64,000 nucleotides of DNA. Source: an uncultured Alphaproteobacteria bacterium (lineage in GTDB: Bacteria; Pseudomonadota; Alphaproteobacteria; Rs-D84). The stretch is from positions 86,263 to 150,262 of the forward strand of contig CAJOGD010000001.1 in assembly GCA_905233975.1 (NCBI GenBank). Reading direction: 5' to 3'. Below the pieces are notes generated by a model that saw only the letters and a list, made by a program, of their open reading frames with translations, was not told the DNA's origin and made no database searches. Positions 12,071 to 44,913 of the stretch are shown one piece after another. The stretch's first letter is position 1; each line of letters begins with the position of its first letter. Both the position numbers and the translations under genes were made by a program.

Positions 12071-12787
12071 ATGAAAACGGTTATGATAACAGGAAGCGCA
12101 AACGGCATTGGAAAAGCAATCGCACAAATTTTAAAAGACAACACTTTAATTCTTGTGGACAATGATGAAGCGAATTTAATTAAAACAGCCAATAAATTAG
12201 ATTGTGATTATTATGTGTGCGATATATCAGTTGAAAAAGATATTACTGTTTTGTTTGAAAATATAAAGGAAAAATATAATAACATAGATTGTTTGATAAA
12301 TTGTGCAGGAATATGGATTTCTGGGGATATGTCAAAACTTAATGAACCAATATATAAAGAGATGAACGAAATAAAAAGGTTAAAAAAAGTTATAGACACA
12401 AATGTTTTTGGCACGATAGCCATGATAAAAAATATCTTTCCAATTATGAAAAAACAAGGATATGGGCAAATAATTAATATCAACTCACAAAGTGGTGTAA
12501 TGTGCGAACCACCTTTCCCTGTTTATAATGCCACAAAACACGCAACCGCTGCTTTCAGGAAGGCAATTCAAGATGATTTAGCTAGAAATAATATAAAAAT
12601 AACAGATGTTTGTCCTGGACTTGTTCAAACCGATTTCTATACAAGGGCAAATAATCCATTATCAAAAGAAATTATGGATACTGGATTAACCCCAAATGAA
12701 ATCGCAAAAACAGTAAAGTATTTATTTGATTTACCACACGAAATTACGATACCAAGTATAGAAATCAGACACATAAAAAATTATTAA
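12071..12787 (+). CDS. short-chain dehydrogenase/reductase (classical SDR)
   Basis: TGSANGIGKA Rossmann motif and YNATK catalytic motif. Markedly AT-rich compared with its neighbours. Confidence 0.8.
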   Translation: MKTVMITGSANGIGKAIAQILKDNTLILVDNDEANLIKTANKLDCDYYVCDISVEKDITVLFENIKEKYNNIDCLINCAGIWISGDMSKLNEPIYKEMNEIKRLKKVIDTNVFGTIAMIKNIFPIMKKQGYGQIININSQSGVMCEPPFPVYNATKHATAAFRKAIQDDLARNNIKITDVCPGLVQTDFYTRANNPLSKEIMDTGLTPNEIAKTVKYLFDLPHEITIPSIEIRHIKNY

Positions 12788-12838
12788 CACCTTTATTCTC
12801 CATAAATTTATGTTATAATAATGGCGCGGGGGTGAAAC

Positions 12839-13396
12839 ATGATACACAAAAAATCTGATGCCATTATTGCGAATAAAAAGATTAACGCCGCGGAACTTGC
12901 GCGGGCGCAGGAAATTATTACCGGCCTGTACGACCAATTGCCGAAATATATCGCGCGCGGCTATGGGCCATTCTTGGCGGCGGTCTATGACGAAAACGGG
13001 TGCATGGTGTCGCGGGCCGCAAACACCGTCACACGCGACCAATGCAGTCATAATCACGCAGAAATAAACGCCATACGCAAGGCGGAAAAGCGATTAAAAA
13101 CTTACGATTTATCGCCGTATAATTTAAGTCTGTATATCACCGCGGAACCATGTATTATGTGTTTGGGTGGCATTATGTGGTCGGGAATAAGGGCCGTCTA
13201 TTTTGGAACACCGTCACGCGTCGCCGAAAGAATTACCGGGTTTGACGAAGGCTTTAAGCCGAATTGGTTAACCGAATTCAAAAAGCGCGGCATTACCGTA
13301 TATGGCAACATCGAACCCGAAATGGGCAAAAAGATTTTGCAAGACTATGTCCGCGATAAACATATCATATACAAGCCCAAACGGAATATGTTATAA
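12839..13396 (+). CDS. CDA-fold zinc deaminase (cytidine/deoxycytidylate/tRNA-adenosine deaminase family)
   Basis: HAEINAI and PCIMCLGG zinc-binding motifs; 185 aa. Confidence 0.7.
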   Translation: MIHKKSDAIIANKKINAAELARAQEIITGLYDQLPKYIARGYGPFLAAVYDENGCMVSRAANTVTRDQCSHNHAEINAIRKAEKRLKTYDLSPYNLSLYITAEPCIMCLGGIMWSGIRAVYFGTPSRVAERITGFDEGFKPNWLTEFKKRGITVYGNIEPEMGKKILQDYVRDKHIIYKPKRNML

Positions 13397-13416
13397 TACC
13401 GCGAAAGGAGATAAAT

Positions 13417-14121
13417 ATGATTGAATTAATCGGTGCAATTTTGGGGACATCTATGTTCTATGGATTGGTTTGCTGGATTTTTCGGGTCAAGCATTCCAAA
13501 AGATTCATCATGGCGGGAATTATTACTTGGTTGCTGTGTGCGACCATATACGGTCTAACAAACATGGAACATTTTTATATCCGATTCTTGACAGGGTTGT
13601 TTATGTACCTGATTGGCGCCGCCGTATGGACGGGACTTGCGATTTACTTTGATAAAACCAACAAGAATATCAAATGGATTTTGCGGTATATCCCAATTAC
13701 TACGTTGATAATCGCCGTTGCCCTGCCCTTTTTGCTTTTTATAATTTACAAGGCATATAACGAAGAAAAACTATCCAGGGTCCATGATGAAGTCGCACTT
13801 ATTTCCACTGGTGCACATATGCTTATGGGCGAATATTCTGATTATTCGGCATTGAATAACGATTGGCTTTTCAGGGCTATGGACATGTCGAACAAAAATC
13901 CATACAACGGGGTTTATATGGTTGAACCATACGCGGGGAATCCGGAATACTTTATCGTTTCAATCACAAACGTTCCGTCCGCCGATTGCAAGAAACTGAT
14001 TGAACACAAATGGACGGGTTCCGCGCTATACGAATTGGACAGCACGCAATACACCGGCGCAGTGGCGATACCCGCGGATTGTTCCGGCAAATATAACATT
14101 GTCCAAATAATGTTTGATTAA
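13417..14121 (+). CDS. integral membrane protein (about 5 N-terminal TM helices plus a soluble C-domain), unknown function
   Basis: Hydrophobic N-terminal 130 aa. Start lies 21 nt after the deaminase stop. Confidence 0.5.
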   Translation: MIELIGAILGTSMFYGLVCWIFRVKHSKRFIMAGIITWLLCATIYGLTNMEHFYIRFLTGLFMYLIGAAVWTGLAIYFDKTNKNIKWILRYIPITTLIIAVALPFLLFIIYKAYNEEKLSRVHDEVALISTGAHMLMGEYSDYSALNNDWLFRAMDMSNKNPYNGVYMVEPYAGNPEYFIVSITNVPSADCKKLIEHKWTGSALYELDSTQYTGAVAIPADCSGKYNIVQIMFD

Positions 14122-14135
14122 CGCGAATAGTTTTT

Positions 14136-14856
14136 TTAATACCCACCATCGACGGTCAAAACGGCACCGTTAATATACGACGCGTCGTCACTTGCCAAAA
14201 AGTAAATAACACGCGCAATTTCTTCGGGCCGCGCGAAACGTTCAAGATAAATCTTGTCTGTTTCTTCCCGAATATACTCTGGGCTTAAATTTGCATTCAT
14301 TCGTGTATCAACCCAACCCGGCGCCACAGCATTCACACGAATACGCGGTTTAAATTGAAACGCCAAATCACGCGTCAAACTTTGTAATCCGATTTTTGCG
14401 ATGTTATAATCCAAACAGTCCGGCGACACCGTTTTCGTCCCGTTGGTAGAGGAAACGTTGACTATGGTAGCCCCCCCCCCCCGCCCTGGACACGATAAAA
14501 GCGCCCAAAACATCGACATTTAATGTCTCTTTTACCTCTTCTATTTTTATATCAGAAAAAGGCCGATCATAGACAATTCCGGCATTATTTACCAACGCAT
14601 TGATTTTTCCATATTTTTCACCAACGTACGCCATCATGGCGTTAACCTGGACCTCGTCAGAAACATCCGCGCGATATGTTGTTGCGTTGATATGATAGCG
14701 TTCTTCTAAATCCTGCTTTAACGCATTGGCGGCGTCATCTTCGCGAACATAGTTAATAATCACATCGTATCCATGCTTTGCAAATTCGGTCGCCGTCGCG
14801 CGCCCGATTCCGGAAACACCACCCGTCACCAAAACAACCTTGTCCGCCATAGCCAA
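14136..14856 (-). pseudogene. SDR (FabG-like oxidoreductase) interrupted by a frameshift in a poly-C(12) tract. Possible phase-variable gene or pseudogene.
   Basis: ORFs 14404..14856 (TGGVSGIGRA Rossmann N-terminus) and 14136..14519 (SDR C-terminal half with YNIAK) overlap in different frames. A C12 homopolymer at 14471..14482 lies inside the overlap. Confidence 0.7.
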
Positions 14857-14868
14857 TCCTTTTTTATT

Positions 14869-15015
14869 TTACCGTCTGTGGGTACAAGCACTGCTGACAT
14901 GCGCCGCATTCGCATTTTTTACCTGTTGGGCCGCGCCAAAACTAAGAACCCCGGCAATCGCCAACAAAACATAAAACAAAGCACGTTTAGATTCTGGACT
15001 TAATTTCTTCATCAT
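14869..15015 (-). CDS. small (48 aa) signal-peptide protein MMKKLSPESKRALFYVLLAIAGVLSFGAAQQVKNANAAHVSSACTHRR
   Basis: Hand-translated minus-strand ORF directly upstream of the frameshifted SDR. Hydrophobic core after a basic N-terminus. Absent from the ORF track because it is under 60 aa. Confidence 0.25.
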   Translation of the reverse strand: MMKKLSPESKRALFYVLLAIAGVLSFGAAQQVKNANAAHVSSACTHRR

Positions 15016-23311: not shown

Positions 23312-25099
23312 ATGCGAATGATTGATTCTTGTTTTTTGTGTCTTGATATTGGGACGTGCGGTGTTCGTGGTGTTGCGCATCGCGTTCGAAACGCGGTAAT
23401 TGATAAATCCGCATATTATGCCATTGACGATTTTGACACTGTGTTTGCATTAAAATCTGTGGCGGACGAACTTGAAAAACAAATTGGAACGCATTTTGAT
23501 ACTGCATACATAACCGGAAATTTCGGAAACGCTTTTTTCAGTATATCTGCCAAGGAAACGAAATGGTCAACCGAACACAAAATTACAAACTCTGATATAC
23601 GGACGCAAATCGCACAAATTGATGCACCTGATGATTTTTATCCAATGCATATAATACCATTGCGATACGATTCCACAAAAATCCGTAATATGTTAACCCC
23701 CATTGGCCAGGCGGACACCGCACTTGTATCTACTTTTGCTGGGATATTTTTTGAAAACGAACGCATGCAAAAAATCCTTAGTCTTTTGCGCCAATCACAT
23801 ATTCAGCCTTCGGCATTTTACGCACCGCAATTTCTTTACGGAAATGTTCTACGAAAAAAGAAAACAATCGTAATGTTTATTGATTTTGGGGCCGAACACA
23901 CAACCGCATCCATTTGGACCGATCGTGGCCCGGTTTGGTATTCTGCAAATTTTGCCGGCGGCAACGATTTGACCGAAGAAATATCAACCAGACTTGATAT
24001 ATCTTTTTCCGAAGCCGAACGCATAAAGCGCAACACCGCCGATTTATATTCAAACGAAATGGCGCGTTTTAGCCCCGCGGACAGCGCATACGCTTTTTCT
24101 TGCGCCGACGTAAATGAAATTGTTGTTCCGTTTATATACAATCTTGTTGAACAAATCCAAACGGCTTCGGCCAAATATGTTGAAAAATATGCACCTTGCG
24201 AAATCGTATTGACCGGCGGCGGCGCACAATTAAAAGGCATCGTCGAATTATTATCTGGACGCTTTAATATTCAAATAACACAAACCGGCCCCGACACAAA
24301 TGTTCGCGCACTGGCCAAATATATATGGGATTCTGTCCGTCCGTACCGCAGTGCATATATTGCAAGATTAAAACGTTGGCAAAAAATCACGAATAAAATC
24401 TTTGGAATATTCCACCATCGCAAACAACCCAAGAAACAAAAAACATTTATCCCAATTATGCCAAGCACACTTTGCTTTGACATGGCCCGGCCGGAAACAT
24501 ACACCATGTTTCGTTCAGGCGGCATATCAATTATACACGTCGATATTATGGACGGGCTTTACGTTGACAAGATTACCGGTGGCATTACGGAACTGCGCAA
24601 CATACGCGCCGCATGGCCCGGACATTTGCATGTTCATCTGATGACGGACGCACCCGCAACATGGGCAACCGACGCCATAAACGCGGGCGCGGATACGGTA
24701 ATACTTTCAACAAACACCGTCGGATTGCGTCGCGCCGTCCAAATTGTCCGCACATCGGGCAAACGTGTCGGAATCGCACTTAATCCCGAATCTTCGGTAT
24801 CTTTATTAAAAACGATTCTGCGCGACATTGATGAAATTATGGTGATGGGTGTCGCGCCCGGTGCGGCGGGTCAAAAATTCAATATGAATGTGCTAAATAA
24901 AATATCCATACTTGCCAAAGCACGCAAAAAATACGGACTTAAATTTATAATTTCCGTAGATGGTGGAATAAACCCCGAAACCGCAAGACTTTGTTGGGGC
25001 GCCGGCGCCGATTTGTTGGTCAGTGGTTCATACCTTGCGCACGCCGCCGATTTTCCAATCGCTGTGATGTCATTGTTGCCATCGGCAACCGGTATTTAA
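23312..25099 (+). CDS. FtsA (actin-like cell-division ATPase) fused in frame to ribulose-phosphate 3-epimerase (Rpe)
   Basis: Residues 1-375 carry FtsA motifs LDIGT, MFIDFGAEHTTASIW, ANFAGGNDLTEEIS and VLTGGGAQLKG, then an amphipathic helix. Residues ~380-595 carry Rpe motifs (HVDIMDG and a TIM-barrel pattern). Single ORF with no intervening stop. Confidence 0.7.
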   Translation: MRMIDSCFLCLDIGTCGVRGVAHRVRNAVIDKSAYYAIDDFDTVFALKSVADELEKQIGTHFDTAYITGNFGNAFFSISAKETKWSTEHKITNSDIRTQIAQIDAPDDFYPMHIIPLRYDSTKIRNMLTPIGQADTALVSTFAGIFFENERMQKILSLLRQSHIQPSAFYAPQFLYGNVLRKKKTIVMFIDFGAEHTTASIWTDRGPVWYSANFAGGNDLTEEISTRLDISFSEAERIKRNTADLYSNEMARFSPADSAYAFSCADVNEIVVPFIYNLVEQIQTASAKYVEKYAPCEIVLTGGGAQLKGIVELLSGRFNIQITQTGPDTNVRALAKYIWDSVRPYRSAYIARLKRWQKITNKIFGIFHHRKQPKKQKTFIPIMPSTLCFDMARPETYTMFRSGGISIIHVDIMDGLYVDKITGGITELRNIRAAWPGHLHVHLMTDAPATWATDAINAGADTVILSTNTVGLRRAVQIVRTSGKRVGIALNPESSVSLLKTILRDIDEIMVMGVAPGAAGQKFNMNVLNKISILAKARKKYGLKFIISVDGGINPETARLCWGAGADLLVSGSYLAHAADFPIAVMSLLPSATGI

Positions 25100-35165: not shown

Positions 35166-35840
35166 CTATTTTACCAAACCATAAAAACATTTTCTTTTGC
35201 CCAAATATGCCGCCCACATACGATCGCCATAGCAAAAGTGCCACCATTCATTTGGATAATTTACAAAACCGTTTTTCTTCATAACACGACATAGCAAATC
35301 TCTGTTGGCCCGGGCCGTTTCATTCACCGCCGCATTCGTCCTTATGTCTTTACCGGTGACCAAATATATTGCACCCATATCCAATTCAACACCGTTTTCA
35401 TCGCACAGACCAATGTCTATGGCACCACCCGTTTGATGCCCGCCATGCCCACGCCGCGGATCGGCAATAACGCGTTTTGTTCGCAGTGTTATTTGATCGT
35501 CTGTTTCATCTGGATACATCGCTTTATAGTATGCATACTTTTCATTCCACGCTTGCGTTTGAACACTCAAAGGCCGATACGCATCATATATTATAAAACA
35601 GATTCCGGCCGGCAAAGCCCCGGCCGCCTTTATTATTTTATCCGCAACCGTTTGCCGCAACAAAACCTCTTTTTCCTTGGCTAATCGGCCACCAAAGAAA
35701 AATTTCACATTAGCTTTTTTAATATCAACCAACGGTTCGCCATTATCACATTCTTTTACACCATTGATAACAAACGCAGGCAATCCGGCGGCCAAACCCA
35801 ATTTGTATTTCACATAGGCCTTTAAAACACTGAAACGCAT
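35166..35840 (-). CDS. D-Ala-D-Ala dipeptidase (VanX/DdpX, peptidase M15D)
   Basis: VanX-like length and motifs, including RGHGGHQTGGAIDI (H..D zinc ligands). Confidence 0.55.
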   Translation of the reverse strand: MRFSVLKAYVKYKLGLAAGLPAFVINGVKECDNGEPLVDIKKANVKFFFGGRLAKEKEVLLRQTVADKIIKAAGALPAGICFIIYDAYRPLSVQTQAWNEKYAYYKAMYPDETDDQITLRTKRVIADPRRGHGGHQTGGAIDIGLCDENGVELDMGAIYLVTGKDIRTNAAVNETARANRDLLCRVMKKNGFVNYPNEWWHFCYGDRMWAAYLGKRKCFYGLVK

Positions 35841-35976
35841 ACCCCCCACCCTTTGTCAATTTGCCGGGGCCAAAATAGCAAAAAAAAAAAATTGTCAATC
35901 GATTTCTGAAAAACCCGCACTTTTGTAATGCAAAACACCCGCTTTTACGATAGAATTAACAAAAAAAGGAGACGTA

Positions 35977-36498
35977 ATGGCATACCAAACAACCGACAGC
36001 ATATATAAACGCCGCAGCATTCGGTCTTTCTGTAAAGACGAAATTTCGGACAACGATTTAAACTTTATTTTATCCAGTGGTCTATCGGCGCCCAGTGGCG
36101 AAGGCATTCACCCGTTGGAACTAATCATAATCAAAAACGACGAAACCAAAGAAAAAATTAAATCTTTTTATGAATGGGCGGGATTTTGCACTGAATCCCC
36201 GGTATCGGTTTTGGTTTGCTATGACGCAAATAAAATTCTTGCGGCGGGTTATGATAACGATGACCTTGGCAAACTTGACGCCGCGGCATGCATAGAAAAC
36301 ATGTTGTTGCGCGCGACCGATTTGGGAATCGCGACATGTTGGACGCACGCATTGGAAAACGCGGACGATTACCGCCACCTGCTTGGGATTCCAAAAAACA
36401 TTGTCCCGGTTGCATTGGTTGTGATGGGATATTCAGACCAACCCTTTGTCGCCAAAGACCAATTCGATAAAAACAAAATCCATATCGACCGGTGGTAG
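35977..36498 (+). CDS. nitroreductase-family protein
   Basis: IYKRRSIRSF nitroreductase N-terminal motif. Confidence 0.65.
   Translation: MAYQTTDSIYKRRSIRSFCKDEISDNDLNFILSSGLSAPSGEGIHPLELIIIKNDETKEKIKSFYEWAGFCTESPVSVLVCYDANKILAAGYDNDDLGKLDAAACIENMLLRATDLGIATCWTHALENADDYRHLLGIPKNIVPVALVVMGYSDQPFVAKDQFDKNKIHIDRW

Positions 36499-42468: not shown

Positions 42469-44913
<2,445 letters not shown>

Follow-up and report, generated by a model that had tools for sequence, protein, structure and literature searches.

A length-variable poly-G tract in an SDR gene of an uncultured alphaproteobacterium, a candidate slippage on/off site entangled with sequencing artefacts

The minus strand of a 64,000-nt stretch of DNA from an uncultured Alphaproteobacteria bacterium (contig CAJOGD010000001.1, positions 86,263 to 150,262; hereafter the window) carries a poly-G tract inside an SDR oxidoreductase gene, and the reading frame of the gene is broken at this tract. 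The tract differs in length between public assemblies of the same species, one of its alleles encodes an intact enzyme, and tracts occur at the same site in sister species. We consider it rather probable that the poly-G is real and hypermutable, that replication slippage moves the SDR between ON states (G10, G13 and G16) and OFF states, and that the window holds an OFF copy with an extra deletion adjacent to the tract. The locus looks like a candidate lineage-specific slippage on/off tract, for which an adaptive role is at most putative. The kind of element is well known, the host and the gene class are unusual, and the case is strongly entangled with sequencing artefacts. The elements of the locus are as follows, in window coordinates.

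14471..14482, minus strand: poly-G tract (C12 on the plus strand), coding for the Gly-rich αE-βE linker
14404..14856, minus strand: ORF of the N-half of the SDR, with the TGxxxGxG (TGGVSGIG) and NNAG motifs
14404..14850, minus strand: SDR N-terminal part, from ATG 14850 (MADKVV...) through TGGVSGIG, NNAG and the tract to the out-of-frame tail YHSQRFLYQRDENGVAGLFGL and a stop
14136..14519, minus strand: ORF of the C-half of the SDR, with the S...YxxxK motif
14136..14470, minus strand: SDR C-terminal part in the +1 frame, ATIVNVSS...YNIAK...TVDGGY and a stop, with the catalytic Ser, Tyr and Lys
14481..14483, minus strand: junction of a 15-nt in-frame deletion (GCGGAGCCGTATCTT, codons AEPYL), its placement ambiguous by 1 nt
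14869..15015, minus strand: 48-aa ORF with a hydrophobic N-terminal segment and a GGGA ribosome-binding-like motif, immediately upstream of the SDR

On the plus strand the region reads GACTATGGTAG, C12 and GCCCTGG..., and the sequence 3' of the run is GCCCTGGACACG. As the initial annotation had claimed, the run of 12 C splits the SDR gene: the two ORFs are halves of one SDR with a mutual offset of +1, the frame changes at the tract, and the repaired protein matches Pfam adh_short_C2 (E = 2.8e-56, 191 bits, cut-off 27). The run is the sole C or G run above 7, that is, of 8 or more, within the 64-kb window. Shorter C runs comprise seven of length 6 and one of length 7; given a drop of ~4-fold per extra base, ~0.001 runs of 12 are expected in 64 kb. 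Codon usage offers little material for such a run either, GGG making up 16% of the Gly codons in the window and GGG-GGG occurring in none of the 50 Gly-Gly dicodons of 24 long ORFs.

In the window the gene is OFF, shifted to the +1 frame as in the G11 allele described below. Its N-terminal product has 148 aa (P0124) and starts at ATG 14850, which was also chosen by the gene callers in other assemblies. An exact-protein look-up of this fragment returned no match; the identical sequence is present in the cluster table as P0124. The frame is repaired by G11 (-1) or G14 (+2), giving a product of 237 aa from ATG 14850 that is five residues below every homolog, exactly at the tract. The expectation that a change of one base in either direction would restore a protein of ~240 aa is correct for the loss (237 aa, without AEPYL) but not for the gain, since G13 (+1) leads to ...GGGGLP and a stop. 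The 48-aa ORF, said earlier to follow the gene, lies upstream of it in the direction of transcription (15015..14869, minus strand). A second strain has this ORF intact, its 147 nt differing by one nonsynonymous change (N34S), and the gene callers leave it uncalled in every assembly. A scan for promoters and terminators revealed nothing relevant to the tract above shuffled expectation.

The classical SDR motifs are all present (TGGVSGIG, NNAGIV and SS...YNIAK), split over two frames in the window. Among solved structures, its best relatives are SiaM (3woh, 3e-39) and FabG-type reductases. None of the curated NCBIfam cut-offs is reached (TIGR01830, FabG, 185.7 against 297.75; NF009466, 194.7 against 222), so we reject an identity as FabG, and "FabG-like" denotes a resemblance only. 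The gene shares TGxxxGxG, NNAG, S...YxxxK and a length of 242-244 aa with the classical SDRs (adh_short, adh_short_C2), but differs from these and from FabG by its sub-cut-off NCBIfam scores and by its place in a separate subfamily, marked by the motif SP[ED]CLDYN. Members of this subfamily (L014-L093) come from gut MAGs of Alphaproteobacteria, Bacilli, Clostridia and Saccharibacteria, and it is also found in CPR bacteria and DPANN archaea at 45-50% identity, an odd distribution centred on small-genome organisms.

The shortfall of five residues was located by alignment with the closest homologs (76-78% identity, 241-242 aa), in which RA-AEPYMQKGG-AIVNVSS stands against RA-GGG-ATIVNVSS in the window. 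The AEPYL deletion is found in the window assembly alone, and the codons are kept in all other tract-crossing assemblies. Two of these are free of mismatches to the window, contig L001 over 12,705 aligned nt with a single 15-nt gap and contig L007 over 20,036 aligned nt with a single 16-nt gap. The G12 of the window is composed of 11 core G and the last G of the Ala codon GCG, and it appears as G12 because the deletion joins this G to the G11 run; the window allele is, judging by its sequence, the G11 allele minus 15 nt. According to the AlphaFold model of the closest homolog (mean pLDDT 85), the helix 103-127 ends with AEPY as its last turn, and the Gly residues come directly after it, opening the segment toward the next strand. 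Solved SDR structures show gaps of 7-10 residues against the deleted window protein exactly at the tract site, a sign that changes of length are tolerated there. Since AEPYL forms the last turn of αE, a -1 slip in the window would give a truncated-helix variant and not the normal enzyme. The deletion has one of two sources: a lesion that arose very recently, or library preparation or assembly on a difficult template. A de Bruijn misjoin is unlikely, as joining through a k-mer made up of G alone would put k or more G into the contig, not 12.

Loci of the same species were found through exact matches to SDR fragments and to the neighbouring 234-aa protein. All data are short-read metagenome assemblies, that is, consensus contigs; 17 contigs were examined, the window included, and 11 of the 17 stop at the tract. 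Exact 26-mer scans with the left flank in one genome and one metagenome contig collection gave no matches, so the species is not represented in either. On the coding strand the other assemblies read GTGTCCAGGGC GGCGGAGCCGTATCTT G(n) CTACC with n = 11, 12, 14 and 16, followed 3' of G(n) by CTACCATAGTC, and full-length alleles (AEPYL present) are in frame at G10, G13 and G16. The state of the tract in the individual contigs is as follows.

Window: reference; G12 including the deletion junction; OFF, +1
L001 (ERZ27234821): identical to the window outside the tract region; G11; OFF, 153 aa
L007 (ERZ28573570): identical to the window outside the tract region; G12; OFF, 134 aa
L005 (SRR16020855): second strain, ~97% DNA identity; G14; OFF, 154 aa
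L006 (ERZ27298374): second strain, ~97% DNA identity; G16; ON, intact 244-aa protein P0123
L002 and L003: contig ends at C11 and C10
L102 and L103: contig ends at C22 and C25
L099: contig stops immediately before the tract
L095-L098, L100 and L101 (six ENA assemblies): contig ends in 10-36 G instead of poly-C, with miscalls just before

The comparison of tract length across assemblies, suggested by the initial annotation, thus revealed a variable tract, with lengths of 11, 12, 14 and 16 in crossing contigs and minimum lengths of 22 and 25 at contig ends, covering all three frames. One of the five crossing copies is in frame, whereas the deleted window copy and three of the four full-length alleles are out of frame. 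The in-frame G16 protein P0123 (244 aa) is encoded on two contigs, L006 and one of 245,481 nt. The public assemblies show neither a single length that gives an intact ORF nor a uniformly out-of-frame tract, the two outcomes named beforehand as speaking against phase variation. The phase-variation reading itself gains from the varying length and the intact G16 allele, but is weakened by the extra deletion, by the artefacts at the site and by the fact that, of the single-base changes, only -1 restores the frame of the window copy.

In two-colour Illumina chemistry, signal loss reads as G. The six poly-G contig ends look like a dark-cycle artefact of this kind, set off by the template of the tract when the G-rich strand is the one being read. 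The tract itself was considered as a sequencer poly-G artefact and rejected, because five assemblies, each with unique sequence on either side, show it as poly-C; it also encodes Gly at a conserved Gly-Gly site, where sister species carry G8-G11. Sequencing and assembly fail at the tract, so the assembled lengths are uncertain and may be under-called from the in-frame G13 or G16. In some strains the tract probably exceeds the lengths found in the crossing contigs.

These failures lead to the most serious alternative, which we nevertheless regard as unlikely, namely that the tract is stable and in frame (for example G13 or G16, according to the strain) and that the frameshifts, the length differences and the 15-nt deletion come from PCR stutter, signal loss and assembler choices. 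Besides the six contigs that end in poly-G for poly-C with miscalls just before the tract, five more stop inside or at it, and three assemblies that are otherwise identical over 12.7-20 kb give G11, G12 and G12 with the deletion. Stutter mostly shortens runs, and could make G11 or G12 from G13 and G14 from G16. However, the lengths range from 11 to at least 25 and vary by strain, and five assemblies cross the tract with unique flanks, where k-mers longer than the run would need real reads of those lengths. The sister species on contig L104 is also frameshifted, at G11, and even a fixed tract of G13-16 would slip in vivo at high rates, as is established for G/C tracts.

A second alternative, to which we give a lower probability still, is gene decay, in which the SDR is dispensable in this species, relaxed selection lets the expanded tract drift out of frame, and the 15-nt deletion takes pseudogenisation one step further. 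The out-of-frame state of four of the five crossing copies would agree with this, as would the second lesion of the window copy, which removes conserved residues, and the broken SDR of the sister species L104; the assemblies compared yielded no intact allele from the strain of the window. Against it stand the intact allele P0123 and the condition of the remaining sequence. The SDR gene is free of further stops and frameshifts in every strain compared, and all the residues invariant across 17 homologs are kept in the window SDR. The unique changes between strains are four synonymous and one nonsynonymous, and a binomial estimate for so few nonsynonymous changes under neutrality is ~0.016. The SDR gene differs between strains at 4 of 735 positions, compared with ~97% identity across the surrounding 2.8-kb segment. 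The clean remainder of the gene, the invariant residues and the 4:1 split therefore argue against a long-dead pseudogene.

That out-of-frame alleles are still expressed by transcriptional slippage or ribosomal frameshifting, which would leave the DNA frame of little import, is very improbable: three of the four out-of-frame copies share the +1 phase (G11, G14 and the window) and long homopolymers are in general RNA polymerase slippage sites, but these are known mainly for A/T runs and slippage is less documented on G/C runs, no frameshift-stimulating signal is evident, the G12 allele of L007 is in the other phase, and three of four in one phase is weak statistics.

The origin of the tract was approached through the related species. 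In 37 species representatives of the family, the site has the form Gly-(Gly/Ser)-(Ala/Thr) before IVNVSS, and a run of G7-8 occurs there in only 3 of the 37 more distant species. Within the alphaproteobacterial clade, the species are 70-79% identical to one another, save for one pair at 98%, and the same Gly-Gly-Ala loop holds a tract in four of the seven lineages (G8, G10, G11 and, for the species of the window, G11-25). The three sister-species tracts are as follows.

P0004 species: CTG GGG GGG GCA; G8
P0006 species (L011/L012): ATG TGC GGG GGG GGG GCT; G10, in frame
L104 species (ERZ28653445), L104:2022..2032: C G11 CT; frameshifted (in-frame lengths would be G9 or G12)

The L104 species was reached via one of four proteins from a search with the N-terminal protein, and its SDR is called as pieces of 151 aa and 83 aa. 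A second G9 is present on the same 5-kb contig at L104:36..44, in the partial first gene. The tract is absent at the site in the P0001, P0002 and L014 species. The contrast is sharpest between the P0006 species (L011/L012) and L014, whose SDR proteins are 98% identical, where G10 stands against ATG AAT AAT GGT GCT with no tract; the two sites are not linked by any single simple mutation. One synonymous change could stabilise the site, yet four of the seven clade lineages hold a tract. Because of the sister-species tracts at this site and the rarity of GGG-GGG in the genes of the window, the tract would appear to be a recurrent or retained expansion at a glycine linker. Its patchy spread among close relatives fits a recurrent mutational accident. 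Three consecutive glycines becoming 9Gs is named as one origin of such tracts in the PhasomeIt paper (PMC6321876).

On the preferred reading, slippage at a real hypermutable poly-G, the tract would have grown from the GGN-GGN-GCN codons of the αE-βE linker, which may tolerate three to five glycines. G/C tracts of 8 or more are slippage-prone in replication, and from this established behaviour a run of 11 to 25 or more would be predicted to slip by slipped-strand mispairing, so that populations would hold lengths in all three frames. Cells with G10, G13 or G16 would produce the full enzyme; other lengths would yield a stub of 134-154 aa comprising the Rossmann part only, without the catalytic Ser-Tyr-Lys. 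One ON copy among five crossing copies fits neutral drift as well as switching.

A more ambitious form of the preferred reading holds that poly-G of 8 to 25 or more across the alphaproteobacterial clade is a true contingency switch, with a variable poly-Gly linker when in frame and the SDR off when out of frame; this we find doubtful. The G-rich template may in addition form a G-quadruplex, as would account for the failed sequencing.

One cut-off in use for contingency loci is a mononucleotide G/C tract of at least 7-8 units inside an ORF or promoter (PMC6321876). The SDR tract lies inside an ORF, and its length differs between assemblies of the same species, which are short-read with artefacts at the site. 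The gene is ON or OFF by length without any other lesion, except for the 15-nt deletion of the window copy. Like the poly-G/C contingency loci of Campylobacter, Helicobacter, Neisseria and Haemophilus, the SDR has an intra-ORF G run above the threshold of 7-8, a strain-variable length, a full or truncated product according to frame, and a gene that is otherwise intact, and the proposed origin from consecutive glycine codons matches the route described for such loci (PMC6321876). The core phasome of Campylobacter fetus includes an SDR family gene, CFT03427_1551, with G(8-9) (PMC6321876). The differences are considerable, however. The host is an uncultured Alphaproteobacteria MAG lineage and no known pathogen, the tract reaches 16 to 25 or more where 9-10 is usual, and it sits mid-gene, in a structural linker of a cytoplasmic-type SDR. 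The window contains no second tract of this kind and so no hint of a multi-locus repertoire, and the variation is known from assemblies alone.

A parallel outside the surface-antigen class is glpK of Mycobacterium tuberculosis. Its tract is reportedly a short one of 7 C, for which switching is said to have been shown experimentally together with a drug-tolerance phenotype. In that study (bioRxiv 10.1101/717272), the reversible homopolymer frameshift likewise affects the gene of a cytoplasmic metabolic enzyme and not of a surface antigen, whereas what is documented for the SDR tract is variation from one assembly to another.

Provided that the length variation is biological, the locus would be a case of repeat-mediated on/off switching that affects a metabolic enzyme in a gut commensal not yet cultured, and it would bear on the question, raised in a review of phase variation, of whether its apparent restriction to pathogens is a database bias (PMC11868660). 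Should the stronger reading as a contingency switch be true, the known range of SSR phase variation would widen to include gut commensals that are non-pathogenic and uncultured, as well as core-type metabolic genes. The locus is also a warning for annotation: the split SDR, the 15-nt deletion and eleven contig breaks trace to one homopolymer, which current short-read chemistry is unable to read reliably.

The gut setting is suggested by the relatives of the gene. Proteins named "MAG: Alphaproteobacteria bacterium" share 96% identity with the GyrB of the window (42469..44904, minus strand), and SDR relatives were found in gut MAGs from goat, cattle (bovine), rabbit, mouse and human (Hadza); this association points to a gut habitat. 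The host-associated setting that the initial annotation expected for such tracts therefore probably applies. The neighbours of the SDR gene are a second SDR, a deaminase, membrane and uncharacterised proteins and an ABC/MacB set, and no surface-structure locus is recognisable among them. The region beside the SDR differs between strains: window 12071..14121 contains the second SDR gene, and the corresponding L006 10750..14097 contains acetyltransferase and NERD-domain genes instead. The membrane protein adjoining this strain-variable region has 238 aa in L006 and 234 aa in the window.

Several other features were observed in the window. The only other homopolymer longer than 8 is an A12 run at 35880..35891. 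It falls in the 127 nt that separate two divergent genes, one Peptidase_M15/VanY-like (35166..35849, minus strand) and the other for a nitroreductase (35977..36498, plus strand), where it could affect promoter spacing. A 595-aa ORF (23312..25099, plus strand) consists of an FtsA/PilM-like N half fused to a ribulose-phosphate 3-epimerase C half (NCBIfam), and the same fusion is called in L006 and L007. The long ORFs of the window lie mostly on the minus strand, and the GC skew of the plus strand is strong, uniform and negative, at about -0.2 in most 2-kb windows.
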